Assembly: GCA_963704755.1 (NCBI GenBank)
Contig: OY969938.1
Span: 990,001-1,022,000 of the forward strand
Reading direction: 5' to 3'
DNA: 32,000 nt
DNA from: an uncultured Chloroflexia bacterium
GTDB lineage: Bacteria > Chloroflexota > Anaerolineae > Anaerolineales > Anaerolineaceae
Positions within the stretch are counted from its first letter, which is position 1. Every line of letters starts with the position of its first letter. Shown here piece by piece: positions 1,795-23,809 of this stretch. The position numbers and the translations under genes were made by a program. The notes beneath the pieces were generated by a model. The model was not told the DNA's origin and did no database searches. It saw nothing but the letters and a program-made list of their open reading frames with translations.

Positions 1795-2750
1795 CCAGCC
1801 TGGGCAGTTTTATCGCCAGGTTTGGGGCGCTCTTTGGCTTGTTGATCCTGGTTGTATTTTTATCGATCAGTTCCAAGGTTTTCCTCACCTCGGATAACCT
1901 TTCCAACATTGTCCGCCAGGCAACTGTGAATGCCCTGTTGGCTGCCGGGATGTTGCTGACCATCATCACGGCCGGCATCGACCTGTCGGTTGGCTCGATC
2001 CTGGCCGTTTCGATGTGTACCCTGGCCATCATGGTCATCAAATGGAACATCAACCCGTTTATCGCCATGATCCTCAGCGTCCTGGTCGGCGGATTGGTCG
2101 GTTGGGTCAACGGCATCCTGCTGACCAAGCTGCACCTGCCTCACCCGTTCATATCCACCCTGGGCACCATGAACGTGGCCCGCGGCCTGGCCTTGATTAT
2201 CACCGCCGCCTCGCCCATTTCGGGTTTCGACCGGGCCGGTGCACCCCAGGTGCTGTTCCTCGGAGCCGGCTCGCTGGGGCCGATCCCAATAGCGCTGTTC
2301 GTCATCATCCTGGTTTATCTCCGATTTAACCTGCTGTTGAAAAATTCCGCCTTGGGCAGGCATATCTATGCCATTGGCGGTAACCAATCTGCGGCGCGGC
2401 TCTCGGGCATCAACGTTAACCGCACGCTGGTGATCGTGTACAGTCTCAGCGGGCTCATGGCCGGCCTGGCCGCTTTGATGCTGGCCGGTCGGACCAATTC
2501 AGGCTTCCCCACAGCAGGCGAAGGCTACGAGTTGGATGCAATCGCCGCCGTGATCATCGGTGGAGCCAGTTTTGCCGGCGGGTCAGGCACGATCGGTGGT
2601 ACCGCTATCGGGGTGCTTTTGATCGCGGTTTTGCGGAACGGATTGGTTTTACTCAACGTGCCCACCGAATGGCAGACGGTCGCGATTGGCCTGGTGATCA
2701 TCGGCGCGGTGTATGTAGATGTGCTGCGCCAGCGCGCCAGCCGCAAATAG
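1734..2750 (+). CDS. Sugar ABC transporter permease (RbsC/AraH-like, CUT2 family)
   Basis: 338-aa polytopic hydrophobic protein with TIITAGIDLSVGS and GGASFAGGSGTIGG motifs typical of CUT2 permeases. GGGAGA lies 9 nt upstream of ATG 1734. It overlaps the ATPase 3-prime end by 61 nt; an alternative ATG is at 1755. Confidence 0.85.
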   Translation: MARIQATMDDVKSRLPFSGIASLGSFIARFGALFGLLILVVFLSISSKVFLTSDNLSNIVRQATVNALLAAGMLLTIITAGIDLSVGSILAVSMCTLAIMVIKWNINPFIAMILSVLVGGLVGWVNGILLTKLHLPHPFISTLGTMNVARGLALIITAASPISGFDRAGAPQVLFLGAGSLGPIPIALFVIILVYLRFNLLLKNSALGRHIYAIGGNQSAARLSGINVNRTLVIVYSLSGLMAGLAALMLAGRTNSGFPTAGEGYELDAIAAVIIGGASFAGGSGTIGGTAIGVLLIAVLRNGLVLLNVPTEWQTVAIGLVIIGAVYVDVLRQRASRK

Positions 2751-2856
2751 ACTGCCAGTAAATTCCCTCAGGAGGTGCAGATCCCCTCAATTCTGTCCAG
2801 CACGATGCAAAGGAAAGATGTTCCGTATCCGCTATCTGCTCGGGATAATTCGAAAT

Positions 2857-2911
2857 GTTCAATTGGATGTGTTTGCGGCCGCCTGGCGGCTGTAAACACA
2901 TCCAATTGAAC
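2857..2911. repeat. Intergenic long hairpin (ttggatgtgt family)
   Basis: gttcaattggatgtgtttgc (2857-2876) pairs with gtaaacacatccaattgaac (2892-2911). There is one G-T mismatch, and the GC-rich loop ggccgcctggcggct is itself partly palindromic. It lies between the permease and binding-protein genes. Confidence 0.8.
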
Positions 2912-2961
2912 GGCCTGATACAAACGAGCAGTTCAATATTCCACATATCTATGGAGGAGTT

Positions 2962-3939
2962 ATGCGAGCCAATTTACGAAAGTCGATCGTTATTTGCCTG
3001 GTGACAGGACTCTTACTGGCAGCATGCAGCCAGGCCACCGCTACCCCCGCCCCAACCGCCGCCGCGGATCAAGGGACTACCTCGGGTGATAAACCGGTAA
3101 AAATCGCCGTGGTCGTCAAAGCCGTGACCAGTGATTACTGGAAACTGGTTGGGCAAGGCGTTCAGGACGCCATGACCCAGGACCCCAGCATCACCGCCAC
3201 CTTCCTGGGCCCCAATGAAGAGACCGACGTCGAAGGCGAGATTCGGATCATCGAGGCGCAGATATCGGCCAAAGTGGATGCCATCGCCGTGGCTCCCAGC
3301 CAGGCTGACCAGGTTGCCCCCACTTTGCAAAAAGCGGTCGACGCCGGCATTCCGGTCGTGTTGATCGACACCGATATTTCCACCTTCACCGCTAAAAGCG
3401 CTTTCGTCGGCACTGACAACGAATTGGGCGGAGAACTGGCCGGCCAGTTTATCGCCACCAAGCTCCAATCTGGCGACCAGGTTGCCATCATCCGCGGCGC
3501 CGCCGGCGACCCGGTCCACAACCTGCGCGAACAAGGCGCCACCAAAGCCCTCACCGATGCCGGCCTGAAGGTCGTGGCCGTCCAGCCGGCCAACAGCGAC
3601 CGCGCCATGGGCCAAACAGTCGCAGAAAACCTGCTGACCGCCAACCCGGATTTGAAGGCCATTTACGCCACCAACGATGAGATGGCCCTGGGCGCCGTCA
3701 ACGCGGCCAAAGCCGCCGGCAAAAGCCTGGTGATCGTCGGTTTCGATGCCTCTCCCGATGGGCTGCAAGCCATTAAAGATGGCTCCCTGTCCGCCTCGGT
3801 AGCCCAATTCCCCACCAAGATCGGTGAGCTGGGTACTCTCACAGCCGCAGCCGTCGCTCGCGGCCAATCCGTTGATTCCTTCGTCAACACCGGTGTCCAG
3901 GTCGTGACCAGCGAAAATCTCAGCGATTTCCTGAAATAG
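2962..3939 (+). CDS. Sugar ABC transporter substrate-binding lipoprotein (periplasmic binding protein type I)
   Basis: GGAGG RBS sits 4 nt upstream of the ATG. The signal peptide has a lipobox (LLLAAC). KIAVVVKAVTSDYWK, GIPVVLIDTD and IVGFDASPDG are typical of RbsB-like binding proteins. Confidence 0.85.
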   Translation: MRANLRKSIVICLVTGLLLAACSQATATPAPTAAADQGTTSGDKPVKIAVVVKAVTSDYWKLVGQGVQDAMTQDPSITATFLGPNEETDVEGEIRIIEAQISAKVDAIAVAPSQADQVAPTLQKAVDAGIPVVLIDTDISTFTAKSAFVGTDNELGGELAGQFIATKLQSGDQVAIIRGAAGDPVHNLREQGATKALTDAGLKVVAVQPANSDRAMGQTVAENLLTANPDLKAIYATNDEMALGAVNAAKAAGKSLVIVGFDASPDGLQAIKDGSLSASVAQFPTKIGELGTLTAAAVARGQSVDSFVNTGVQVVTSENLSDFLK

Positions 3940-8592: not shown

Positions 8593-8846
8593 CGATAATC
8601 TCCTCTCAAGGAATTTATGCGTGTGGCAATAACGGCAACACCACCGCAAAATCAGGTTAATTCAACACCGCTTTTCTTAGCTAATCCAATCCCCTTAAGC
8701 GTCCAAATCCTTTTCAAGATCTGTTTTTGCCGGATTAGCATGAATTGTCAAACTTGTACTTCCTTAGTTAAGATAGCGCGTGAGTATTAACGGATAATCA
8801 AGAAACCGTTAATAAACGGCGGTCATCCATTTAAGGTTAAATTATC

Positions 8847-8957
8847 GTAACTACTCAGCCACTGTAGAGGATGAGGGTGTTTTTTATTATTTTTGTGTGC
8901 TTTGCACACAAAAATAATAAAAAACACCCGATCCCTCCATAGTAGCTGAGTAGTTAC
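8847..8957. repeat. 111-bp imperfect palindromic element (tttttattatt family) immediately downstream of the protease operon
   Basis: Perfect 26-bp core stem: gggtgttttttattatttttgtgtgc (8875-8900) with gcacacaaaaataataaaaaacaccc (8904-8929), loop ttt. Outer arms gtaactactcagc (8847-8859) and gctgagtagttac (8945-8957). It probably terminates the 18465-8961 operon. Confidence 0.8.
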
Positions 8958-8960
8958 TTT

Positions 8961-10082
8961 TTATCCTTTGCTGCCGAAAATAGCCCGCAGGAAGCGAAAC
9001 AAGATATCCAGGAAGCCGCCACCGCCGGTCTCCGGTGCAGGTTTGGGCAGCGGCTGTGAAGTCACCGTGGCGATTTGGGCGGCGCTGCAATATTGCTTGA
9101 TATAATCGTAGGGGATGCGGGCATAACCGGGCGCCACCGAACTTTGGCGGGCCCAGCCGGTGCCCCAACTGTTGCGAAAAATAAAATAGCCCCCACCGGG
9201 CACCTGGGGATCATCCTCATAGCCAACCATACAGATGGCGTGGCCGCCCTCCAGGTGATCGTTGGCCAGCGGCAAACGGAGATCACCGCTGGTCTGGGCC
9301 GGCTCGGCAAACCAGAAGGTATACACCGGTAGGGCAAAGGCCACCGGTGAGCCACCGGCCAGCGTCTGGCGAAAGCTGTCCACTGAGCGGGGTGGGAGCT
9401 TTTGGGTGCCTGATATACGATAAGATACTGCCTGGCTAGCCGCCCCCGCCGGCGGAGGATCCTGGCTCTCATTGCCGGCAATCGGGGTGGGGTTATAGGG
9501 CCAGGCCTGCTCCGGGCACTCGCCCTCATCCAACAGGCATTGCATCCCCACGCTGATCAGCGTGCCCGGGCCAGGCAGCAAGTCGTGTTTCTTGCAATCC
9601 CAATACAAAAACTGTTCCGAAAGGTCCGGTGTGGGCGCTGACGCGCCCAGCCAGAATTCCCGTACGGCGGTGGTGGCAAAAGCGACACAGGTGCCCCGCT
9701 GCCCCTGGTCGCGGATGGGCGGCATCTGGCCGTGCAAATCCACTTTGGGGGGCAGCGGGGCAAACGACACATCCGCTGATCCGCCGGTATCCCCGCCTTC
9801 GAGGGTATCCTGGGCGCCCAGGCCATGCCGGCGCACTTCATCCGGCGCAAAAGAAACGCCCGGGGGTAAAGCGTTCTGAGCCAGCTCGACCAGCCGGCCG
9901 GCCTGCTCTGCCGGCAGGACCAGGATTTGAGCCAAGTCGGCCAGGCCATTCTCCCTGGTCGCCGCGCTGACCAGCTCTTCGGCGGTCGTAATCCAGTAAG
10001 CCGCCAGCTTTTGCAGTGCATCCGCGGGAAAAGATGCGATGCCGCTCAATGGGGTCCCTTGTTTTTCTGTCGTATTTTCCAT
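8961..10082 (-). CDS. Papain-family (C1) cysteine peptidase, no signal peptide, C-terminal amphipathic tail
   Basis: IRDQGQRGTCVAFA (oxyanion Gln plus catalytic Cys132, codon 9687-9689), GGHAICMVGYED (His), YFIFRNSWGTGWA (Asn/Trp). An N-terminal ~100-aa helical region precedes the catalytic domain. The C-terminus is GGGGFLDILFRFLRAIFGSKG. Confidence 0.85.
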   Translation of the reverse strand: MENTTEKQGTPLSGIASFPADALQKLAAYWITTAEELVSAATRENGLADLAQILVLPAEQAGRLVELAQNALPPGVSFAPDEVRRHGLGAQDTLEGGDTGGSADVSFAPLPPKVDLHGQMPPIRDQGQRGTCVAFATTAVREFWLGASAPTPDLSEQFLYWDCKKHDLLPGPGTLISVGMQCLLDEGECPEQAWPYNPTPIAGNESQDPPPAGAASQAVSYRISGTQKLPPRSVDSFRQTLAGGSPVAFALPVYTFWFAEPAQTSGDLRLPLANDHLEGGHAICMVGYEDDPQVPGGGYFIFRNSWGTGWARQSSVAPGYARIPYDYIKQYCSAAQIATVTSQPLPKPAPETGGGGFLDILFRFLRAIFGSKG

Positions 10083-10121
10083 CCTTTCGAATCGTGATTA
10101 TTCAGGCATGTTCAATATGTT

Positions 10122-10186
10122 CCCGAATTTGAGGTGTTTGTAGGGGCTTCGCCCCCACAAACACCTCAAATTCGGGGTTCTTACCC
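10122..10186. repeat. Palindromic repeat, cccgaattt...ttcttaccc family (copy 1)
   Basis: cccgaatttgaggtgtttgt (10122-10141) pairs with acaaacacctcaaattcggg (10157-10176) around an aggggc-ttc-gcccc apex. It is followed by ttcttaccc (10178-10186). It sits in the only large gap of the operon. Confidence 0.85.
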
Positions 10187-10205: not shown

Positions 10206-11669
10206 TCAAATATTTTCTTTCGATAATTCGGCCGCCCGCAGTTTAACCGCAGGATCGCCGAATAAAACGTACCCTTCCGCATCGTTGCGCTCGATCCAGG
10301 TGGTGGCCAGGGTATTCTGATCCACATCCGCTCCCCAGCCGGCTTGCTGCAGGATGGCGCTCAGGCTGGTCGAAAGCGCCGCATAGCGCTCGTTAAAGTC
10401 CTTCAGGGCGTACCCCAACGGTTGGCCGGTCAAGATGCGCCCGATCGCGTTTTGAAAAGTCTGAATCTGCGGCCCGGCGGAGGGCGAAACGATCGAATAG
10501 CCCCAGGCGCGCTCCACGTGGCCGATACAGGCCAGCGCCCCACCGGCGGGATGGGCCAGCCAGGTTTGCGGCAGGGCCGCGAAAAAAGGCGCCTCGGCGA
10601 TACCCGGCGGGGGCTGCCCCGGCGTGTGGATAAACTGGTCCTGGGACGGGGTACCGGCGCCGTAACAGGCGAAATGGAAAATGACCATCCCGCGGACGCA
10701 GGCATTGGGCGGTACATCCGCCGCCGAAAAATAGTGCTCCGGCGCGATGGTTCCAAAGCCGGGCCAATCCTGGCAAAGCAAGGCGCCTTGCGCCTTTGGC
10801 TGGGCCGGATCGCCTCGCGGAAAGCCCATGCCGTGGCTGGCAGTAAAGAGGAACGCCGGCGGTTTTCCGCCGGCCGGTGCGCTGATGGTTTGCAGCAAAG
10901 CCGCCTTACTGGCCGCCTGGCCGATCAACTTTTGAGACTGGAAGCCCCATTGCCCGGCTACCCCGGGCGCAGCCGGTTCCTGGTCATGGGCCGGGCTGCC
11001 ATCCGCCAGCGGACCGGCCAATAGATCGGCCGAAATTTTGGTTGCCTGGTCGAAGGGGTGGCGAGTGGCGAAAAACACAGCCTCTTTTTTGTTTTCCACG
11101 CTCTCAGCCGTCTCGTATTCGATCACCGCGGCGGCGTAGGCGGCGTATTGGTCCGCCTGCTCGAAATACAACCGGCCAACCCCGTAATCGACGTCCAGCA
11201 ATTGGCCAAATTCGAAAGGGATCTGTACCGGGCTGCCGACCAGCAGTAAATAATAGGGCAGCCTGGTTGGCTGCACGTTGCCCGGCGAGACGCCATAGCG
11301 GCCCAGCCAGTCTTCCCATCCTTCGCCTGGCCGATAATCCAGCACCTTGACCAGGGCATCGTTCCCGATCTGTTTGCGGCGGTGTTCGATCAGGGTCTGG
11401 AAAGCGGCTTTGACCGCCGGGGTCTCGTCTTTGGCAAAAACGATGCCCCAGCCGGCCTGGCTGATCTCGGCCGGATCGACCCCCAGGGGCAGCCCCAGGA
11501 ATGGCGTGCGGATCTTGTGCCAGATGCTGGCCAGCCAATTCAGGGTATTTTTGTCACCCACTTCCCCGCGAGCCATTTGCGCTGCTGCCGAGACCGGCAT
11601 AGGCGCTACCAGGTACTCCCCGGTTATGCCGTTGATGCCATTCAGATAAATCAGGTCCTCATCGCTCAT
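10206..11669 (-). CDS. Gingipain-like (peptidase C25 / clan CD) cysteine peptidase, no signal peptide
   Basis: C25-like N-terminal pattern: YYLLLVGSPVQIPF ... DVDYGVGRL ... AAAVIEYE. Caspase-fold dyad candidates are FLFTASHGMG (His) and VIFHFACYGAG (Cys). GGGAGA RBS lies upstream of ATG 11669. Family assignment is by motif memory only. Confidence 0.6.
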   Translation of the reverse strand: MSDEDLIYLNGINGITGEYLVAPMPVSAAAQMARGEVGDKNTLNWLASIWHKIRTPFLGLPLGVDPAEISQAGWGIVFAKDETPAVKAAFQTLIEHRRKQIGNDALVKVLDYRPGEGWEDWLGRYGVSPGNVQPTRLPYYLLLVGSPVQIPFEFGQLLDVDYGVGRLYFEQADQYAAYAAAVIEYETAESVENKKEAVFFATRHPFDQATKISADLLAGPLADGSPAHDQEPAAPGVAGQWGFQSQKLIGQAASKAALLQTISAPAGGKPPAFLFTASHGMGFPRGDPAQPKAQGALLCQDWPGFGTIAPEHYFSAADVPPNACVRGMVIFHFACYGAGTPSQDQFIHTPGQPPPGIAEAPFFAALPQTWLAHPAGGALACIGHVERAWGYSIVSPSAGPQIQTFQNAIGRILTGQPLGYALKDFNERYAALSTSLSAILQQAGWGADVDQNTLATTWIERNDAEGYVLFGDPAVKLRAAELSKENI

Positions 11670-13092: not shown

Positions 13093-16000
13093 CTAATCTT
13101 CACCGCTTTCGATAAACCTGCTCCAGCGCGTATACCAGCGCTGCGCCACACCCCGGCCGGCCAAGGCGCCCAGGGTCAGCGCCAGGCCGCATAACCCGGC
13201 CTCGATCAAAGCCAATACCTGGTTCCAGCCCGCGAAATGGGCCATCCAGGTCTGCCACCAGCCGGCTGTAAAATGATCGAATTCGCTCGCGAAAAAAGAT
13301 CCCGACAGGGCAATCGCTATCCCGCTGCCCAGGGCCGGCCAGGCCAGGAACAGCGCCTCGACCAGCCCAAACGTGACCGCACCGGCCAGGCCTCGCGCCA
13401 GCCGGCCGAGGGGCGAATCTCCCCGTCCTAAATACAGGGCCGCGCTGAAGCCGGCTCCCGCCAGGAACCCCAGCGGCAGCACTGCCGGGGCTTTGGATAT
13501 CGAAATGCCATTCAAGAGGGCCACGACCAGGTTGGCCAGCCCAAAACCCAGCCAGCCCAGTACAAACACCAGCCCGTTCCTTTGCGGCCGTCCGGGTTGG
13601 CTCTGCCGGTCCAGGCGCAGGGACCTGGCCATCCCGGCTGTCAGGGCAGTGACCCCGGCCAGTAACAGGCCCCAGTACGAAAACAGCGCGAAAAAGATCG
13701 TCCCAAGCTGCGACTGGCTCAACCAGCCCACCACCAGCCGCTCGAACCCCAGGGCCAATCCAGCGCCAATCCCGGTCCCGGCCGCGATCCAGGTGATCTG
13801 GCATCCATTGCGCAAAATCCGCCGGCCGGCGCGCCAGCCATAGACGGCCAGCCTTTGCAGCACGCTGGCTTTCTTGATTTCCGCCACGGCCTGCCCGGCA
13901 TCGGCCAGGGCGCCGGCCAGTTCTGCCCGGCGGATAAACCGGCGGCCGGAGGTATCCAGGTCTGCCAGGGCATGCTCCAGGCGATAAAATGCCTCGCGTT
14001 GCCCCTCCTGAAGGGCCATCAGCGCCAGGGCTGCCGTTCGCCGGCCAATAGTATCCCGGCCGGCCGCGGCGGCCCAGGCCAGGTCGCCATACCCGCCTTC
14101 CTGTTCGGGCCTCTTGGGCAAGTCCGGATCGTTCAAGCCCAGCAGCCGCCCGGCCAGTTCACGAGCCGAGCCTTTCAACGGGTTCACCCCGGCCACCATC
14201 CCGCCCAGTTCGATTGCGCGGATGAAACCCAGACTGCTTTCCAGTGCTTGCAGCCTGTCCAGCCAGGGGCCGGCCGGAACATCCCGGGCTACGGCCGAGC
14301 GCAGTAAAAACAGCACCTTTACCGGTCTTGGATCCAGGTGAGCGCCGTATTCTTCCAGCTTGCGCAATTGGGCCCGGCCGGCCAGGGCGCGATCGCCGGT
14401 TTTGCTTCCCCGGGCGGCCTGAGCAATCTCGGCTAACCAGATCCGCCAGGCCCGCTCCAGCTCGTCACCGGCATTGTAGGCTTGCTGCACCTGCTCACCG
14501 CCCAGGCGGATGGCCTCGTCGGCGATCATCTGGTTAGGAAAGGCGTACCGGTAACAGCCCTGGTTCAGGCGCCGGACCAACAGTTCGGCCTTGACCAGGC
14601 GTTCCAAAATCTGCTCCACGGCCGGCGGAGCCAGCGCCGGCCCTTGCCCGTCCTTGAAGCCATTCAGCGCCGGACTGGCAAGGATCTGCTCTGGCGCAGC
14701 CCAATGGTCCATTTCCGGTGCCGCCATGGCGACCAGGATTTGCCCGGCCAGCCCGGACTGGTCGGCAAAATGGGTTTCCAATTCGTCCTTCATGTAGCGC
14801 ACCAGGATGCCATCCGCACCGCCGGCCTGCTTCAGGTACAGGTTTTCATCGATCAAAGGCGGGTGCAGCTCGCGGGCATGCTGGTACAGCCAGGTGCAGG
14901 TGATCTGTAGCTGGCCGGGGTCAACCCAGGCGGCCGTGTCCTCTGCGCTCGAATCGGTGTACAGGTTGGCCAGGTCGGGGGCAATCAACTCGCGGGCCAG
15001 GGTGGGGTTCAGCGTGACCGGCCAACCCAACGTATCCAGCGGATCGACGATAGCTTCCACGGCCTCATCCAATCCCAACGGTTCCACTTCGATCCAGTTG
15101 CCCGAGCGGTTGGCCAGCCAGGCCTGTAAGTCTCCCAGGTTGGCCAGTGCATCCTTGTGAATCGCGAAGACCAGCTTCAGGCGCTCACCCAGGGCCTCCA
15201 GGGCGGCATTCAATTCGGCCAGCATGGCTTGCTGGTGTTTCCCCTCCAGGCCGGTCACCTGCTCGAACTGGTCCAGGATCAAAGCCAGGGCGGCAAACTG
15301 GCTGAAATTGACCGTGCGCAGCACCTCTGCCAGGGGCGCGTCTCCGCCGACACCCGGGTTGACCGGGTGGCCGGCCACGCGGTAGCCCAGGCGGAATTCT
15401 TGGGCCAGGTCGGCATACGCCGCGATCGAAACTACCAGCCAGTTCTCCTGCTCCAAAACCGGGCGCAGCCCGGCCTCGACCAGCGAGGTCAGCCCTACCC
15501 CGGCTTCGCCGAACACGAGGGTGAGTGGGTAATCGTTCAGGTGCTGGCGGATCTCGGCGATCACCTTTTTGCGCCCGTTGAACAAGTCCTGGTCCTCGCA
15601 CTGGTAAGGCGCCAGGAATTTGTACGGTAGGCGTTGAGCCGGTTTGAAGCGCTGCTCGGGGTTGAACAGGATCCCATCCGGCAGGTGCATGTACAGCACC
15701 GGCACGGCCCACTGCCCGCCGGCTTGCTCCAACAGACCGGCCCGGGCGCGGTTGACCGCCAGGTCCACGCAGCCGGTCTCGAGCAGGCTGGCGAACATCT
15801 GGCAGGCGAACTGGCGCGCCACCTGGTTCTCGACCCGGGCTTGCATACACACCAAAGCCGGGCATCCGGCCCGGACCAATTGCGGTCCCACCCCGGCGAA
15901 GGCATCCTGGCTGGACTGCTGCCCACTCTCACAAGCCGCCAGGAAGATCAGCTCCGGCAGGCGCGGAACGGTGCCGAACAGCTTGACCAGTTCAGCCGAC

Positions 16001-16746
16001 GAGACGCCCACCGGCCCCTGGCTGCCGTCGGGGTAGGTCCCGCTCATCAGCAAGTAGCCGGTCTGCTCGCTCTCCTTCCAATCGCCGTGGCCGACATAAT
16101 ACAGGATATCGAAACCGCCTTCCTGGTTGAGCCGGTCGGCCAGTTGCTGGGCCGTGACCGCGCCGGAGAGCACGTCGTACTCAATCTGCCCGCTGAAACG
16201 GCCGAAAACCTCCTGGATCGATTGCTGCTCCTGGTTTACATCCACGTAAAGGGAGTTGCCGGGCGGAAAGGGGCTGGAAATCAGCACCAGCGCCTTGAGC
16301 GGGCCGGCCGGGAGCGGCAAACCCCAGGGCTGGTCATTTTGCAGGAAGCGTGAAAAATACAGGCCGGCCGCCGGTGCGGCCGGAACCCAGTTGTCCCCCT
16401 CCGGCCGGTACAACCGCTCCCAGGGAATGCGCTGCAGGGCCGGGACCGTTTCATCCAGGTGCAGGCGCAGGCGGATTCCCCGCTCGCCGGCCGCCGTAAC
16501 TGCTCCTTGAAAAGCGCCGGCCAGGCTGCCCGGCAGCAGAGATTGGTACAGCAACTCGCCCAGTGCCTGAGCCGCGTCTGCGCCGGGCTTTTCTTGCAAC
16601 GAACCTGCCTGGGTGGTCAAACCGGCCGGGTCAAGCGTCCCTGAGCCTCCGCTGCCGTCCGGCAGTTCCAGGCGTACCCGGCAAGGTTGTCCGGCCCCTT
16701 GCGAAAGCACTTCTATGCTGACCGGATCCGGCGAAAATTTGAGCAT
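13093..16746 (-). CDS. CHAT-domain protease fused to a STAND-like P-loop NTPase module and a C-terminal 6-7 TM domain
   Basis: CHAT: IPWERLY, ILYYVGHGDW (His220, codon 16087-16089), LIFLAACESGQ (Cys272, codon 15931-15933). NTPase-like: FNGRKKVIAEI...LTLVFGEAGVGLTSLVEAGL (Walker A without Lys, 15487-15510) and ALILDQFEQV (Walker B). The last ~236 aa (13093-~13800) form 6-7 hydrophobic helices. Confidence 0.85.
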   Translation of the reverse strand: MLKFSPDPVSIEVLSQGAGQPCRVRLELPDGSGGSGTLDPAGLTTQAGSLQEKPGADAAQALGELLYQSLLPGSLAGAFQGAVTAAGERGIRLRLHLDETVPALQRIPWERLYRPEGDNWVPAAPAAGLYFSRFLQNDQPWGLPLPAGPLKALVLISSPFPPGNSLYVDVNQEQQSIQEVFGRFSGQIEYDVLSGAVTAQQLADRLNQEGGFDILYYVGHGDWKESEQTGYLLMSGTYPDGSQGPVGVSSAELVKLFGTVPRLPELIFLAACESGQQSSQDAFAGVGPQLVRAGCPALVCMQARVENQVARQFACQMFASLLETGCVDLAVNRARAGLLEQAGGQWAVPVLYMHLPDGILFNPEQRFKPAQRLPYKFLAPYQCEDQDLFNGRKKVIAEIRQHLNDYPLTLVFGEAGVGLTSLVEAGLRPVLEQENWLVVSIAAYADLAQEFRLGYRVAGHPVNPGVGGDAPLAEVLRTVNFSQFAALALILDQFEQVTGLEGKHQQAMLAELNAALEALGERLKLVFAIHKDALANLGDLQAWLANRSGNWIEVEPLGLDEAVEAIVDPLDTLGWPVTLNPTLARELIAPDLANLYTDSSAEDTAAWVDPGQLQITCTWLYQHARELHPPLIDENLYLKQAGGADGILVRYMKDELETHFADQSGLAGQILVAMAAPEMDHWAAPEQILASPALNGFKDGQGPALAPPAVEQILERLVKAELLVRRLNQGCYRYAFPNQMIADEAIRLGGEQVQQAYNAGDELERAWRIWLAEIAQAARGSKTGDRALAGRAQLRKLEEYGAHLDPRPVKVLFLLRSAVARDVPAGPWLDRLQALESSLGFIRAIELGGMVAGVNPLKGSARELAGRLLGLNDPDLPKRPEQEGGYGDLAWAAAAGRDTIGRRTAALALMALQEGQREAFYRLEHALADLDTSGRRFIRRAELAGALADAGQAVAEIKKASVLQRLAVYGWRAGRRILRNGCQITWIAAGTGIGAGLALGFERLVVGWLSQSQLGTIFFALFSYWGLLLAGVTALTAGMARSLRLDRQSQPGRPQRNGLVFVLGWLGFGLANLVVALLNGISISKAPAVLPLGFLAGAGFSAALYLGRGDSPLGRLARGLAGAVTFGLVEALFLAWPALGSGIAIALSGSFFASEFDHFTAGWWQTWMAHFAGWNQVLALIEAGLCGLALTLGALAGRGVAQRWYTRWSRFIESGED

Positions 16747-18465: not shown

Positions 18466-18586
18466 GATTGGTTCCCTCTACATACCGCTAAAACGCTTTC
18501 CCACCTGATCTGCAAGGGCCTGAGCGCTATCTGGCTGCAACGCTACTCAGTGCTATATTGTTGTAATGGGATATAGTTAATGTTTT

Positions 18587-18622
18587 CCCGAATTTAGAAG
18601 GTTTTCAGCCCCAAATTCGGGG
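18587..18622. repeat. Degenerate or short copy of the cccgaattt palindrome family
   Basis: cccgaattt (18587-18595) and aaattcgggg (18613-18622) flank a 17-nt loop. It lies upstream of the lipase gene. Confidence 0.55.
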
Positions 18623-18721
18623 AACACCAGATCATTCCAAAAATTGTGATTTTGTGTGTAAAGAATATAACATTTTACTCGGGCAGTTTCAATACCCACT
18701 GAGGGTCGCGCCAAATATTGT

Positions 18722-19951
18722 CAAGATCAATCCGGCGAATAAATTCGCTGCTACAAATGCACGAAACCCGGCCTTCGCCGGGTTCAACCCCGTTGAGGTA
18801 ATGTTTCATATAATAATCGACATAAATGAACAATTCATTCGAACTCGGCCTTCCCCTGGCGGAACCCCACGAAGGTGGGGTTTCGTGTCCTTGTTGCCGC
18901 GGTTTCAACCGCCGAGATCAAGCAGTGGCTCCAACCTTTCCAATCAATCCGGCAAATAAATTCGCTGCTACAAGGGCACGAAACCCGGCCTTCGCCGGGT
19001 TCAACCCCGTTGAGGTAATGTTTCATATAATATCGACATAAATGAACAATTCATACGAACTCGGCCTTCCCCTGGCGGAACCCCACACAGGTGGGGTTTC
19101 GTGTCCTGGTTGCCGCGGTTTCAACCGCCGAGATCAAGCTTTGGCTCCAACCTTTCCAATCAATCCGGCGAATAAATTCGCAGCTACGAGTTCACGAAAC
19201 CCGGCCTTCGCCGGGTTCAACTCCGTTGAGGTAATGATTCATATAATATCGACATAAATGAACAAATTATACGAATTCGGCCTTCCCCTGGCGGAACCCC
19301 ACGAAGGTGGGGTTCCGTGTCCTTGTTGCCGCGGTTTCAACCGCCGAGATCAAGCAGTGGTTGCAACCTTTCCAATCAATCCGGCGAATAAATTCGCAGC
19401 TACAAATGCACGAAACCCGGCCTTCGCCGGGTTCAACTCCGTTGAGGTAATGATTCATATAATATCGACATAAATGAACAATTCATACGAACTCGGCCTT
19501 CCCCTGGCGGAACCCCACGTAGGTGGGGTTTCGTGTCCTTGTTGCCGCGGTTTCAACCGCCGAGATCATGCTTTGGCTCCAACCTTTCCAATCAATCCGG
19601 CGAATAAATTCGCAGCTACGAGTACACGAAACCCGGCCTCCGCCGGGTTCGACCCTATTGAGCATTACTTCATACCAGTTCGCTATAAATGAACAAATCA
19701 TACGAACTCAGCCTTCGCCTGGCGGAACCCCACGAAGGTGGGGGTTCGTGTCCTTGTTGCCGCGGTTTCAACCGCCGAGATCATGCTTTGGCTCCAACCT
19801 TTCCAATCAATCCGGCTGCTACAAATGCACGAAACCCGGCCTTCGCCGGGTTCGACCCTATTGAGATAGTTTCTTATTCGTCAATAAATCAAATGAACGG
19901 CGTATAACAATCAACTTTTGCCTGGCTGAACCCACGAAGGTGGGGTTTCGT
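18722..19951 (+). repeat. Tandem array of ~216-bp multi-hairpin units, left block (about 5.7 units)
   Basis: Units are anchored on cataa|atgaac. Partial U0 18722-18825; U1 18826-19041, U2 19042-19257 and U3 19258-19473 (216 bp each); U4 19474-19688; U5 19689-19892 (12-bp deletion); partial U6 19893-19951. Each unit holds four hairpins: H1 ggaaccccac-NNNN-gtggggtttc, H2 gcggt-ttca-accgc, H3 gcgaa-taaa-ttcgc and H4 aacccggc-cttc-gccgggtt. Confidence 0.95.
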
Positions 19952-20594
19952 ATTCATAGAGTCAAAATTTCGATAACTAAACGCTTTATGTTTGCATATC
20001 ATCATCCACTTTTTGATACAATTTTTTCAACCATCGGAAATTCTCAGTAAATAATTTCCTAATCACAAAGTCACGAATTTCAGGAAAATTTAAAAAGGAT
20101 AGTCCCATGCGCACCCCCTTCACCCAACTCTATTTACACTGCGTCTGGTCAACCTGGGATCGGTTACCCTTACTTACTCCACAAAGCGAACCACCAATTT
20201 ATTCTGCAATTTTAAATAAGTGTCTTGAATTAAAGTGTGATGCCCTGGCAATCGGTGGGATTGAAGATCATATTCATCTTTTGGTCAGGTTTCCAGCCAC
20301 AATCAGTGTATCGGATTTCGTTAAAGAAGTTAAAGGAACTTCCTCTCACCTGATTAATCATCAAATTAATCCAGGTGAATTCTTCAAATGGCAAGGAGCA
20401 TATGGTGCCTTTACAGTAAGCAAAAACTTAGTGGAAGTGGTACAGAAATATATCAACCTGCAAAAACAACATCACGCCGATCAAAATCTCTACCATGAAT
20501 GGGAGCAAACTTTCTTTAACGAATAATATAATATTTTGAGTTTTCGCTAATAAAGCCCAGCTTCTGACGGAACCCCACGCAAGTGGGGTTTCGT
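19928..20594 (+). mobile_element. RAYT / IS200-like Y1 transposase cassette bounded by two copies of array hairpin H1
   Basis: Array homology stops after ...gaacccacgaaggtggggtttcgt (19928-19951). It resumes at ...ggaaccccacgcaagtggggtttcgt (20569-20594). The AT-rich interval in between carries only the transposase gene. Confidence 0.7.
20107..20526 (+). CDS. REP-associated tyrosine transposase (RAYT) / IS200-family Y1 HUH transposase
   Basis: 139 aa. LYLHCVWSTWDR, HUH motif EDHIHLLVRFP, catalytic Tyr region FKWQGAYGAFTVS, and YINLQKQHH. This matches the layout of Y1_Tnp (PF01797)-type proteins. Confidence 0.85.
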   Translation: MRTPFTQLYLHCVWSTWDRLPLLTPQSEPPIYSAILNKCLELKCDALAIGGIEDHIHLLVRFPATISVSDFVKEVKGTSSHLINHQINPGEFFKWQGAYGAFTVSKNLVEVVQKYINLQKQHHADQNLYHEWEQTFFNE

Positions 20595-21269
20595 GTCCTT
20601 GTTGCCGCGGTTTCAACCGCCGAGATCAAGCTTTGGCTCCAACCTTTCCATTCAATCCGGCGAATAAATTCGCTGCTACAAATGCACGATACCCGGCGTA
20701 GGCCGGGTTCGACCCCGTTGAGATATTGTTTCATATAACATCGCCATAAACGAACAACTCATACGAACTCGGCCTTCCCCTGGCGGAACCCCACGAAGGT
20801 GGGGTTTCGTGTCCTTGTTGCCGCGGTTTCAACCGCCGAGATCAAGCAGTGGCTCCAACCTTTTCAATCAATCCGGCGAATAAATTCGCTGCTACGAATG
20901 CACGAAACTCGGCCTTCGCCGGGTTCAACCCCGTTGAGGTAATGTTTCATATAATATCGACATAAATGAACAATTCATACGAACTCGGCCTTCGCCTGGC
21001 GGAACCCCACGAAGGTGGGGTTTCGTGCCCCAGTTGCCGCGGTTTCAACCGCCGAGATCATGCTTTGGCTCCAACCTTTTCAATCAATCCGGCGAATAAA
21101 TTCGCTGCTACAAATGCACGAAACCCGGCCTTCGCCGGGTTCAACCCCGTTGAGGTAATGATTCATATAATATCGACATAAATGAACAATTCATACGAAC
21201 TCGGCCTTCGCCTGGCGGAACCCCACGAAGGTGGGGTTTCGTGTCCTTGTTGCCGCGGTTTCAACCGCC
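20556..21269 (+). repeat. Tandem array of ~216-bp multi-hairpin units, right block (about 3.3 units), same orientation as left block
   Basis: Partial U7 ~20556-20749, U8 20750-20965 (its first codon is acg, not atg), U9 20966-21181, partial U10 21182-21269. Homology ends inside H2 at ...tcaaccgcc. Confidence 0.95.
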
Positions 21270-21448
21270 CCATACGGGAAATTTACGAAATCTCACCTTT
21301 TCGGTCGCGAAATTTCCTTGATTTACCAAACTGTAATCTTATCTACACAAAATCTGAATCATTTTCTTTTATCCTCTTAGTCAGGTCTTGATACTGCTTA
21401 AGAAAGACGGCCCAATTTTTACTCTTTAGAATCAAACAAGGAGAACAC

Positions 21449-22219: not shown

Positions 22220-22249
22220 ACCATAATCGTCCGCAGTAAATGATATTTC

Positions 22250-22298
22250 GAGATTAAAGAAGTTGCGGTGGCTTCGCCACCGCAACTTCTTTAATCTC
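22250..22298. terminator. Long perfect hairpin between convergent genes (putative bidirectional terminator)
   Basis: gagattaaagaagttgcggtgg (22250-22271) pairs perfectly with ccaccgcaacttctttaatctc (22277-22298). The right arm overlaps the ada stop codon region (22291-22298). Confidence 0.65.
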
Positions 22299-23364
22299 GA
22301 AAGTTTTCTTGTCCCTCGCGGCGGAGCAGTTCTTCCTTGCGGTCCACGCCCCAGTGATAGCCGCCCAAGGCCCCATCCGAGCGCACGACCCGGTGACAGG
22401 GGATGGCGACCGCGATTTTATTGGAAGCGCAGGCCTGGGCGACCGCCCGGACGGCCTTGGGACTGCCGATCCGGTTGGCGATATCGGCGTAACTGGCCGT
22501 AGCTCCGCTGGGGATTTCCCGCAAAGCCGACCACACCTGGCGCTGAAAAGCCGTCCCGCGGATATCCAGGGGCAGGTCCAGGCTGCCCTGGGGTACATCC
22601 AGGTAAGCCAGCACCCGCTCAACCCAGGCCTCGAACTCTGCCGGGGCCGCGACGATTTCGGCCCGCGGAAAACGCTCGGCCAGGCGCTGCTCGAGCGCCT
22701 CGCGGCTGTCGTCCAGCTCGATAGCGCACACGCCTAAATCGGTGGCCGCCACCAGCACCCAGCCCAGGCTGCTCGAGCGGACGGCAAAGCTGATCTTCAC
22801 CCCGCGGGCTCCCTGGCGGTACTGGCCGGGGGTCATACCCAGGTGGCCAGCCGCCTGGCTGTAAAACCGGCTGTTGGATTGGTAGCCGGCCTCGTAGACG
22901 GCATCGGTGATGCGCGGACTATTCTGCAGAGCCGTTTTTACCCGCTCGGTCCGTTTTTGAGCGTAATACTCCTTGGGGCTGATGCCCACTACCTGCTTGA
23001 ACACGCGCTGGAAATGGTACTTGCTCAACCCGGCCCCCGCGGCCAGCTCGTCCAGGCTGGGCCGGCTCTCGGCTTCTTCGATTTGCTTGCAGGCCAACAG
23101 TACGGCCTGGCGGTGCGGATCGCTGCTGTCCACATTGCGGGGATTGCAGCGTTTGCACGGCCGGAAACCGGCCTGCTCGGCCGCTTCCCAGCTATCGAAA
23201 AACCGGGTATTTTCCCGCAGCGGCGTGCGCGACTTGCAGCCCGGCCGGCAATAGATGCCCGTGCTGCTGACCCCATAAACAAAGGGTGCTAATCCATCAG
23301 CGCTGCGCTGGGCCACCGCCTGCCAGCGCTGTTCCTCGATTTCAAGTTTCGTCTCATATATCAT
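22291..23364 (-). CDS. ada: Bifunctional Ada: methylphosphotriester-DNA methyltransferase / AraC-type regulator / O6-methylguanine-DNA methyltransferase
   Basis: N-terminal Zn-Cys4 Ada domain (GIYCRPGCKSR...GFRPCKRCNP). AraC HTH (LSKYHFQRVFKQVVGISPKEY). C-terminal MGMT domain with the active site IPCHRVV. Confidence 0.9.
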   Translation of the reverse strand: MIYETKLEIEEQRWQAVAQRSADGLAPFVYGVSSTGIYCRPGCKSRTPLRENTRFFDSWEAAEQAGFRPCKRCNPRNVDSSDPHRQAVLLACKQIEEAESRPSLDELAAGAGLSKYHFQRVFKQVVGISPKEYYAQKRTERVKTALQNSPRITDAVYEAGYQSNSRFYSQAAGHLGMTPGQYRQGARGVKISFAVRSSSLGWVLVAATDLGVCAIELDDSREALEQRLAERFPRAEIVAAPAEFEAWVERVLAYLDVPQGSLDLPLDIRGTAFQRQVWSALREIPSGATASYADIANRIGSPKAVRAVAQACASNKIAVAIPCHRVVRSDGALGGYHWGVDRKEELLRREGQENFRD

Positions 23365-23551: not shown

Positions 23552-23617
23552 CCCCGAATTTCAGGTGTTTGCGCGGGTTTCACCCGCGCAAACACCTGAA
23601 ATTCCGTTTTCTTACCC
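23552..23617. repeat. Palindromic repeat, cccgaattt...ttcttaccc family (copy 2)
   Basis: gaatttcaggtgtttgcgcggg (23556-23577) pairs with cccgcgcaaacacctgaaattc (23583-23604). It is followed by ttcttaccc (23609-23617). It lies in the ada / DUF1801 divergent intergenic region. Confidence 0.85.
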
Positions 23618-23756: not shown

Positions 23757-23809
23757 CCAGATTTTGGATGTGTGGGCGGGTAAAACCCGCCCACACATCC
23801 AAAATCTGG
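23757..23809. repeat. Long perfect hairpin (ttggatgtgt family)
   Basis: ccagattttggatgtgtgggcggg (23757-23780) pairs perfectly (24 bp) with cccgcccacacatccaaaatctgg (23786-23809), loop taaaa. It lies 64 nt upstream of the DUF1801 gene start. Confidence 0.85.

Follow-up and report, generated by a model that had tools for sequence, protein, structure and literature searches.

The locus described here occupies positions 18726 to 21269 of a 32-kb window, by which we mean the whole 32,000-nucleotide stretch analyzed (contig OY969938.1, positions 990,001 to 1,022,000, from an uncultured Chloroflexia bacterium of the Anaerolineaceae). It comprises two blocks of 216-bp tandem repeats, separated by ~750 bp (19817-20563) that hold one degenerate unit and a 139-aa open reading frame (ORF; 20107-20526, plus strand) for an HUH/Y1 single-strand-DNA transposase-like protein, hereafter the Y1 gene. 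Tandem Repeats Finder (TRF) delimits a left array at 18726-19816 (period 216, 5.1 copies, 92% matches, no indels) and a right array at 20564-21269 (period 216, 3.3 copies, 93% matches) with the same consensus, and the start-to-start spacing is 217/216/216/216 in the left array and 216/216 in the right. The 216-bp repeat is therefore real, as the initial annotation of this stretch had reported, but what was taken for a single head-to-tail array is split by the degenerate unit and the Y1 gene, the latter of which was overlooked.

A unit contains four hairpins, H1 to H4, grouped in two modules, [H1 H2] and [H3 H4], and 18726-21269 holds 10 of the former and 9 of the latter. All four hairpins had been proposed from the sequence and are borne out by pattern counts of 10 for H1 and 9 for H4, against 0.00-0.01 expected in shuffles, with zero elsewhere in the window. 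A covariance model built solely from [H1 H2] modules of other genomes (R1) gave ten '+' and nine '-' matches, all in 18732-21271, and nothing significant elsewhere. From left to right, the locus reads as follows.

18726..19816, plus strand: left tandem array with five full units, U1-U5 (TRF and unit alignment), each in the order [H3 H4](-), 75-nt AT-rich spacer with decayed H4', [H1 H2](+), 35-nt junction
18861-18915, 19077-19131, 19293-19347, 19509-19563, 19724-19778, plus strand: R1 '+' matches of the left array
18732-18786, 18949-19003, 19165-19219, 19381-19435, 19597-19651, minus strand: R1 '-' matches of the left array
19788..19965, plus strand: degenerate sixth unit (U6), adjacent to the gene (R1 matches and sequence)
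19966..20106, plus strand: AT-rich leader 5' of the Y1 gene, with a GC content of 0.30 over 19952-20106 and no homology to the units
20107..20526, plus strand: Y1 gene, 139 aa, Pfam PF01797 (Y1_Tnp, "Transposase IS200 like"), E 1.8e-23
20564..21269, plus strand: right tandem array, made of U7 (partial, [H1 H2] alone), U8, U9, and U10, which ends exactly after H2
20569-20623, 20785-20839, 21001-21055, 21217-21271, plus strand: R1 '+' matches of the right array
20657-20711, 20873-20927, 21089-21143, minus strand: R1 '-' matches of the right array

The '-' and '+' modules alternate strictly, and the gaps between them alternate between 74-76 nt and 35-37 nt. The locus opens with an [H3 H4] module (18726) and closes right after H2 (21269); read in the phase '-' module, spacer, '+' module, both edges fall at module boundaries and not, as had been supposed, inside a unit. 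Full units share 87-97% mutual identity, with a 1-bp insertion in U1. U6 has lost H3 through a 13-bp deletion, its spacer is diverged, H1 persists as a remnant alone, and H2 is gone; its R1 scores are 34.9 bits (19788-19854, minus strand) and 25.9 bits (19926-19965, plus strand), and its identity to the other units is 66-69%. Divergence is greatest in the units nearest the gene (U5-U8), whereas U1 and U10, at the far ends on opposite sides of it, are 96.9% identical; this pattern suggests growth or homogenization away from the gene. The leader at 19966-20106 is presumably the promoter and 5' untranslated region of the Y1 gene; a consensus promoter scan of its plus strand found none. Within the leader, positions 20074-20084, 23 nt upstream of the Y1 start codon, match the 11-mer CGAATTTCAGG, which occurs 6 times when one mismatch is allowed, where 0.66 occurrences are expected. 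Short inverted repeats (CCCGAATTT/AAATTCGGG and GGAAATT/AATTTCC) lie at 18584-18622, 20037-20060, and 21277-21318, that is, just beyond both array edges and upstream of the Y1 gene.

The anatomy of a unit is illustrated by U9 and the junction that follows it.

20876..20889, minus strand: H3, GCGAA-TAAA-TTCGC, inverted counterpart of H2, within the minus-strand R1 match 20873-20927
20903..20926, minus strand: H4, CGAAACTCGGC-CTTC-GCCGGGTTC, inverted counterpart of H1, with stem changes compensated relative to H1
20927..21001, plus strand: spacer of 75 nt, AT-rich, with a perfect TATAAT and with H4' (~20978-21001) abutting H1
21002..21025, plus strand: H1, GAACCCCAC-GAAG-GTGGGGTTTCG, its loop fitting GNAG
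21033..21052, plus strand: GTTG tag (21033-21036) and H2 (GCGGT-TTCA-ACCGC, 21039-21052), proposed by analogy as the candidate recognition element for the Y1 protein
21056..21082, plus strand: junction joining successive doublets, GATCAAGC..CCTTTTCA (unit alignment and edge sequences)

The arms [H1 H2] (GAACCCCACGAAGGTGGGGTTTCGTGTCCTTGTTGCCGCGGTTTCAACCGCCG) and [H3 H4] (CGGCGAATAAATTCGCTGCTACAAATGCACGAAACCCGGCCTTCGCCGGGTTC) are each 53 nt long, mutually inverted, and 72-75% complementary. Because R1, derived from [H1 H2], matches the full-length [H3 H4] modules on the minus strand (50-59 bits), the 216-bp unit is a doublet built from a single two-hairpin module of 53 nt in inverted orientation. 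This is the architecture of REPINs (doublets of repetitive extragenic palindromic [REP] sequences that form hairpins) and of bacterial interspersed mosaic elements (BIMEs). The basic module consists of H1, with a variable stem and a GNAG loop, a short linker, GT[AT]G, and the short, conserved H2 with a TTTCAA-type loop; on the inverted side of U9, CTAC, the reverse complement of GTAG, follows H3 at 20892-20895. The REPIN measures ~190 bp in this genome because the 75-nt AT-rich spacer parts the two modules. Every unit's spacer (e.g., 18787-18860) holds a perfect TATAAT. The inter-REPIN junction (~28-35 nt) is found solely between units and is missing at both outer edges of the locus. A direct echo within the unit had been read as the trace of an internal duplication; that echo is real, being a decayed direct H4-like copy (H4', e.g., 20978-21001, with ~25/30 identical positions by our own count), but the main relation between the two parts of the unit is the inverted one. 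The predicted fold of a single REPIN as single-stranded DNA has an energy of -41.2 kcal/mol (z = -4.8), with H2 and H3 as local hairpins and the H4 and H1 regions paired as a long REPIN-type stem. A closing helix between ctcggc and gccgag, suggested earlier, was rejected, as it suffers one-sided changes in U3 and U5 and is not used in the DNA fold.

Within the array, variable columns amount to 5/8 in the H1 and H4 loops, 21/73 in the spacer, 8/30 in the junction, and 7/61 in the stems, against 0/14 in the H2 hairpin and 0/4 in the H3 loop. The earlier view that variation concentrates in the loops thus holds for H1 (gaag, acag, gtag, and gcaa) and H4 (cttc, ctcc, and gtag), whose variants had been listed correctly, but the H2 hairpin and the H3 loop are invariant and most substitutions lie in the spacer and junction. 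The variable stem columns include uncompensated single changes (U2 H3, U5 H1, and U9 H4). Two loop flips were observed. The H4 of U8 (20687-20710) has the loop GTAG where other units have CTTC or CTCC, with its stem unchanged, and in two populations with identical Y1 genes (L027, 3698-3748, and L028, 3428-3478) the loop reads GCAG in one and CTGC, its exact reverse complement, in the other. Such flips suggest hairpin-templated switching or conversion between inverted modules. We also considered the junction, which runs from H2 to H3, as a remnant of the 3' coding end of the Y1 gene and rejected this, since the local alignment score of 15 compares with 13.0 +/- 2.2 in shuffles and 201/1000 shuffles score as well. 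The last 7 nt of the gene (CGAATAA) resemble the H3 arm and loop but are too short to count, and the sole support for this resemblance is the '-' module that overlaps the stop codon in 23 relatives.

The association of module and gene was examined in 84 gene-bearing loci of relatives, taken from a second long assembly and from metagenomes, with modules found via a sequence-only profile. In 83 of the 84 loci, one module or more is found no farther than 1 kb from the Y1 gene, and module density falls from 9.25/kb within 150 nt of the gene to 0.01-0.06/kb beyond 2 kb. The layout seen most often places the gene between two complete doublets, '-+ gene -+' or REPIN-gene-REPIN (21/81), followed by the gene inside one doublet, '- gene +' (9 loci). 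The median gap between gene and module is 29 nt upstream and 4 nt downstream, and the '-' module overlaps the stop codon in the 23 loci already mentioned, typically with TGA or TAA in the H3 loop. The commonest adjacency is '-+' (121 cases), with a median gap of 8 nt, so the 75-nt spacer, about ten times longer, is particular to the window genome. Module-containing tandem arrays stand beside the gene at 20 loci (period 80-310 bp, 2-7 copies, several cut by contig ends). The best of them, on an independent 5.37-Mb contig (L011), is a 144-bp array of 6.9 copies with 96% matches directly upstream of a 72%-identical gene. Arrays beside the Y1 gene are therefore a family trait and not an assembly artifact or a peculiarity of one genome.

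Some of these loci carry further features. On L011, an unrelated 78-bp tandem array of 5.4 copies (2733-3155, 97% matches) with two GC-rich hairpins overlaps a called 124-aa gene without a Pfam match, and a called 298-aa gene (8822-9718, minus strand), also without a Pfam match, lies largely or wholly inside the REPIN array and is probably spurious. In one population (L069, 646-1819, compared with L058, 5358-6655), an element of ~1.17 kb has been inserted between the upstream REPIN and the Y1 gene, and the two loci are 99.5-99.8% identical outside it; the insertion holds a 365-aa ORF that, in our own reading of its sequence, looks like an IS630-type DDE transposase.

Structural conservation was scored over 12 pairs in 297 distinct nonseed modules, again located by a sequence-only profile. 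Standard pairs fill 97.7% of cells, a share that falls to 80.3% when partners are shuffled and to 21-41% when they are slid, and several pair types occur at most positions; one H1 pair, for example, is GC in 122 modules, CG in 109, and TA in 20, and one H2 pair is AT in 157 and GC in 119. (An initial module set gave 97.3% pairing, a value that is partly circular because the set had been picked with a hairpin and GT[AT]G filter.) H1 and H2, and with them their inverted counterparts H4 and H3, are conserved as structures across genomes. The earlier statement that the stems are kept is thus upheld among relatives but not within the array, and because the stem changes inspected there are uncompensated, the covariation evidence comes from other genomes and not from the array. 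GT[AT]G stands at a fixed position 5' of H2 in 244/297 modules (GTTG in 174 and GTAG in 70), with the variant GTGG in 15; it lies 1-3 nt from the foot of H2, where known REPs have GT[AG]G at the foot itself. When H2-like hairpins were located by their loop motif alone, GT[AT]G was found within 10 nt on the 5' side in 211/274. The H1 loops listed among the 297 modules follow the pattern GNAG (GAAG 116, GCAG 97, GTAG 22, and GGAG 19), and the H2 loops follow TT[CTG]A.

The Y1 protein carries the HUH motif (H55/H57), WQ at 95-96, the catalytic Y115, Q119, and HH at 122-123. In a profile of 29 homologues H55, H57, Y115, and Q119 are invariant and the other motif residues invariant or nearly so. 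The best solved structure for this profile is IS608 TnpA (E 8e-12), IS608 and ISDra2 TnpA being the closest structures, and its Y-I-E-x-Q stretch aligns with QYIENQ of IS608 (Y127 and Q131), which correspond to Y115 and Q119 here; Escherichia coli TnpA_REP is not among the solved structures that match at E <= 0.01. Where sources name the 1130 homologues found at E <= 1e-10, the name is 'REP element-mobilizing transposase RayT' (JGI) or 'IS200/IS605 family transposase' (NCBI), and those named by NCBI belong to Chloroflexota, Anaerolineae, or Anaerolineales. Judged by motif comparison alone, the protein, with DHIH, KWQ, and YINLQKQHH in 139 aa, matches TnpA_Y1 subclass 1.2. That subclass is characterized by DH[IV]H, WQ, and YIKNQKEHH (Y---Q--HH), a median length of 148 aa, and 1.7 copies per genome; it lies near the IS200 transposases yet lacks the properties of insertion sequences (ISs), is mainly cyanobacterial and Bacteroidetes, and is entered as "REP: no" in Table 1 of its description (Quentin et al. 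2018, PMC6006769).

Two homologues from Bacteroidota, at 38.6% identity in Persicobacter and 31% in Bernardetia, also have the Y---Q--HH motif, and both are flanked by inverted hairpin modules.

Persicobacter sp. JZB09, CP012861.1 (L100), 1880-2530: Y1 homologue with motif YIQNQKFHH
Bernardetia sp., NZ_CP147018.1 (L101), 1880-2600: Y1 homologue with motif YILNQPEHH

Three replicons of the Persicobacter strain carry its flanking module, at 9, 4, and 1 places, respectively. The Chloroflexota covariance model found nothing in the flanking hairpins of the two Bacteroidota (best 5.9 bits, E 0.91), so the link between these modules and ours is architectural only.

Collectively, these observations make it likely that 18726-21269 is a REPtron-type system, in which a low-copy, host-maintained HUH/Y1 gene with subclass 1.2 motifs is embedded in clusters of its cognate REPINs. 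REPs are defined by their setting around a Y1 HUH transposase-like gene (REPtron; PMC6006769), and here 20107-20526 has modules on either side, 19-20 in all. Built from inverted doublets of a single palindromic module and surrounding such a gene, the array is a REP/BIME-type cluster and not the RNA unit of unknown kind, distinct from REP/BIME, toward which the initial annotation leaned. Four lines of observation weigh against the REPtron reading. The first concerns dispersal, a defining property of REPs: no module occurs in the other 29.5 kb of the window, and modules in relatives are overwhelmingly gene-proximal, with only 8 matches in the 238 kb of sequence beyond 2 kb of the gene. The second concerns the protein, which scores 20.8 bits with the model for REP-associated tyrosine transposases (RAYTs; NF047646, REP_Tyr_transpos), below the cutoff of 80, has Y115-INL-Q119-KQ-HH and not the class-2 motif Y---NP, and would be labeled an IS200/IS605 transposase under NCBI rules. 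The third concerns the two R1 '+' modules directly flanking the window gene, which have the same orientation, as at IS200/IS605 ends. The fourth concerns traces of movement of the gene, taken up below.

Dispersal does exist in relatives and is modest. The exact H1 pattern is present on 5 contigs of the Chloroflexota metagenome-assembled genome OH_CBlB_125, with clear '-+' doublets on four (L002, L005, L007, and L009) and, on the fifth (L001), a '-' and a '+' module separated by ~100 nt, with a lone module at a distance of 6 kb; no Y1 gene was found in the 7-8 kb around the module matches on these five contigs. A Candidatus Aquidulcis contig also has a doublet, and L012, L060, and L089 have a few modules at distances of 2-6 kb from the gene.

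The strongest competitor, which we nevertheless consider improbable, is an active IS200/IS605-type insertion sequence whose ends are the modules, the 216-bp units being gene-less derivatives, similar to palindrome-associated transposable elements (PATEs) or miniature inverted-repeat transposable elements (MITEs), inserted side by side. The IS200/IS605 family equivalog of NCBIfam (NF033573) matches the protein at 66.3 bits, above its cutoff of 55, the closest solved structures are those of IS transposases, and the direct orientation of the flanking modules is the one expected of such an element. Its foreign composition also fits: the Y1 gene has a GC content of 0.40 and, at third codon positions (GC3), of 0.37, against a GC3 of 0.65-0.79 in neighboring genes, and in 29 of 30 long loci of relatives it is AT-richer than its surroundings (mean GC 0.51 versus 0.58). 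Furthermore, L011 and L012, at 80% nucleotide identity, have the gene and its downstream module alone in common, with different neighbors. Together, the foreign composition and this common part indicate that the gene, or the gene with a module, moved at some time.

The behavior of the gene among relatives argues the other way. The ratio of nonsynonymous to synonymous divergence (dN/dS) is 0.035-0.11 in 11 of 12 gene pairs, with dS up to ~0.9 or more, as expected of purifying selection, and most pairs at 80-100% nucleotide identity have homologous flanks of matching divergence; close relatives keep their flanks at dS up to ~0.9 with dN/dS of ~0.05. Most protein clusters at 90% identity are confined to 1-3 contigs, and the one that spans 12 contigs occupies a single context, dnaJ-prmA-Y1-polX (a PolX-type gene), in all six places listed, not the several sites expected of a multicopy IS. 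No tnpB-like partner appears among the Pfam annotations of the neighbors listed in L011, L012, L018, and L019 or among the scanned window neighbors. The gene most often stands between two complete inverted doublets, the most frequent layout, and the constant junction, present between units only, fits duplication of a REPIN with its flank and not independent insertions; subclass 1.2, moreover, is described as lacking IS properties. We therefore regard Y1 as a gene maintained at low copy number for long periods, with occasional relocation or transfer, much as RAYTs are described.

A still smaller probability attaches to an array of structured noncoding RNA units of 216 nt each, transcribed and perhaps processed, with hairpins selected as RNA. 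Compensatory changes in the conserved hairpins, the perfect TATAAT in each spacer, and the flagging of H1 as terminator-like on the plus strand would all suit such units, and REPs 3' of genes are often transcribed and can stabilize mRNA, according to one description (PMC3733652). The Rfam scan of the window, however, gave no known family at the gathering score, in keeping with what the initial annotation had supposed; the best match by E value was istR (27 bits against a cutoff of 45, E 0.012), and with nothing meaningful at E <= 1 either, a known RNA family was rejected. A sigma-70-type promoter in each unit was likewise rejected, as none was found and promoter-like sites number 4 against 4.8 expected; the spacer TATAAT has no -35 box at proper spacing by scan. 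G.T pairs make up ~1% of cells (own tally of the pair table), where a constraint on RNA only would tolerate many more, and modules are equally frequent and equally conserved in both orientations, within units and across loci. These two features are better accounted for by a constraint acting on both strands of DNA than by one acting on RNA from one strand. The element is also tied to the gene for a single-strand-DNA enzyme in 83/84 loci. Other kinds of repeat were examined and rejected. Against a CRISPR-like or tRNA array stand the sequences between the hairpins, which are themselves repeated at 87-97% identity, and the alternating orientation of the modules; a coding repeat is rejected because the ORFs 18654-18959 and 19523-19864 extend within ~1.5 units. 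These two plus-strand ORFs, mostly or entirely inside the arrays, are probably spurious. A search of the unit against a plasmid collection gave no match.

Least credible of all is an assembly artifact in which a short repeat was falsely expanded to about nine copies, for although tandem repeats are error-prone in assemblies, the units differ from one another (87-97% identity, with the 1-bp insertion in U1, the 13-bp deletion in U6, and divergence graded toward the gene), an identical protein is encoded on a 4.87-Mb contig, and comparable arrays, in the corresponding position next to the gene, are present in relatives that were assembled independently.

As a REPtron-type locus, the element belongs to a known kind of system and its array is not beyond precedent. 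In Pseudomonas fluorescens SBW25, as here, inverted REP doublets form the unit, a REPIN cluster lies beside each RAYT, and tandem REP arrays repeat every 184 bp, with '12 GI and GIII sequences' in each of the two largest (Bertels and Rainey 2011, PMC3116915), so the array is not far larger and more regular than known cases, as had been claimed. The SBW25 enzymes belong to class 2 (TnpA_REP), to which the RAYT groups of Bertels correspond, whereas the window enzyme matches class 1, subclass 1.2; the SBW25 REPs are single hairpins at ~1000 per genome, whereas the REP here is a two-hairpin composite. The E. coli REPtron likewise has a Y1 HUH gene flanked by inverted REP pairs of two subtypes and a tetranucleotide tag 5' of the hairpin foot (PMC6006769). 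Three REPINs surround the E. coli tnpA_REP gene, compared with 9-10 here, and the E. coli tag, GT[AG]G, stands directly at the foot of a long bulged hairpin, unlike the tag of our modules (GT[AT]G, most commonly GTTG), which is 1-3 nt from a 4- to 6-bp hairpin and is preceded by a second hairpin. The alternating REP subtypes, two alternating linkers, and tandem order of E. coli BIMEs are also found here, a likeness of architecture only for which we claim no relation in sequence. Closer in phylogeny are the GTAG-23 REPs of Thermomicrobium roseum, also of the phylum Chloroflexi, which are GTAG-tagged palindromes accompanied by a second small palindrome, CCGSSCC n3-4 GGSSCGG (Di Nocera et al. 2013, PMC3733652); the comparison with our modules is one of descriptions.

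Among Y1 enzymes, subclass 1.2 agrees with the window protein in its motifs (DH[IV]H, WQ, and Y---Q--HH) and nearly in length (median 148 versus 139 aa), and with the window clade in its apparent low copy number and lack of IS behavior (PMC6006769). The published members are from Cyanobacteria and Bacteroidetes and are recorded without REPs, whereas the clade studied here is from Chloroflexota/Anaerolineae and nearly always flanked by cognate modules. IS200 and IS608 TnpA share the HUH and Y---Q active-site layout and similarly recognize a hairpin plus a 5' guide tetranucleotide, but such elements have a mean of 4.8 near-identical copies per genome (99.4% identity) and direct ends, in contrast to the low copy number, synteny, and inverted doublets of the window gene family. 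TIRtrons with their transposases (TIRYTs) and class-3 TnpA_Y1 are similar in that longer inverted repeats, some of them 'double palindromic', flank a Y1 gene, are sometimes dispersed at moderate copy number, and can overlap the 3' end of the gene; TIRYT, however, is probably subclass 2.1, and class 3 has Y----Q and the foot motif CnGA, where the window system has a protein matching class 1 and the tag GT[AT]G. What sets the present locus apart from known systems is its enzyme class (the subclass 1.2 signature), the composite REP, whose two hairpins bracket GT[AT]G, and the host phylum.

On the model of IS608 TnpA and E. coli TnpA_REP, the Y1 protein would bind the GT[AT]G-tagged H2 in single-stranded DNA, on the lagging-strand template or in an extruded cruciform, cleave it via Y115 with the HUH/Q119 metal site, and rejoin the ends, and such cleavage and rejoining might occasionally copy or move REPINs. 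E. coli TnpA_REP has itself been proposed to cleave and rejoin single-stranded REP DNA (PMC6006769). H1 would serve as an accessory structural hairpin because its stem sequence is free to vary and its loop alone is constrained. The 216-bp periodicity most likely arose independently of the enzyme, through unequal homologous recombination or slippage of two neighboring REPINs ~28-35 nt apart. Either process would amplify the REPIN together with its junction, and such amplification would leave the junction internal only and the locus starting and ending at module boundaries. The same explanation was proposed for the ordered REPIN clusters of SBW25, 'including the flanking sequences' (PMC3116915).

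A broader reading, to which we give about equal chances of being right or wrong, is that subclass 1.2 constitutes a second lineage of REP-associated Y1 enzymes with composite REPs, widespread in Chloroflexota and with a similar architecture in Bacteroidota. Such a lineage would be separate from the class-2 RAYTs and contain the nearest relatives of true IS200 transposases; it would be an intermediate between IS200-like elements and domesticated REPIN-RAYT systems, and its enzyme may build the arrays. We found no literature description of an association between REPs and a Y1 gene of the subclass 1.2 type, Chloroflexi included, within an incomplete coverage of the literature; should the association prove not to be new, the locus would be simply another REP/BIME cluster. 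The locus bears on two general questions, by what route REPs spread and what makes bacteria retain the Y1 genes that accompany them. The REP systems studied are all those of class-2 RAYTs, enzymes far removed from IS608 TnpA, whose mechanism is understood. The window-type enzyme would offer a tractable bridge, as it combines an IS608-type active site (HUH and Y---Q) with the apparent behavior of a host gene and with cognate REPINs; given that active site, the biochemistry of IS608 (hairpin plus guide tetranucleotide) should be almost directly transferable to REP recognition. In practical terms, REPIN arrays are easily misannotated as hypothetical proteins, which inflates their counts (as with the ORFs in L011 and the window), and they are likely break points in short-read Chloroflexota metagenome assemblies.

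The window also contains a second, unrelated kind of intergenic palindrome (10121-10176, 23556-23604, 23757-23809, 22246-22302, and 8847-8957), in the form of long hairpins, perfect or nearly so, with arms of 23-27 nt at 100% and of 54 nt at 87%. Two of these palindromes have the common arm start CGAATTT[CG]AGGTGTTTG, the 11-mer CGAATTTCAGG mentioned above was noted along with them, and the kind as a whole may represent bidirectional terminators or another repeat family. At 13093-16746 on the minus strand, a gene encodes a 1217-aa protein with a CHAT protease-like domain and an nSTAND1 NTPase and adjoins genes for a papain-like (8961-10082) and a C25-like (10206-11669) peptidase. Combinations of CHAT and nSTAND1-type domains occur in candidate conflict or defense systems.

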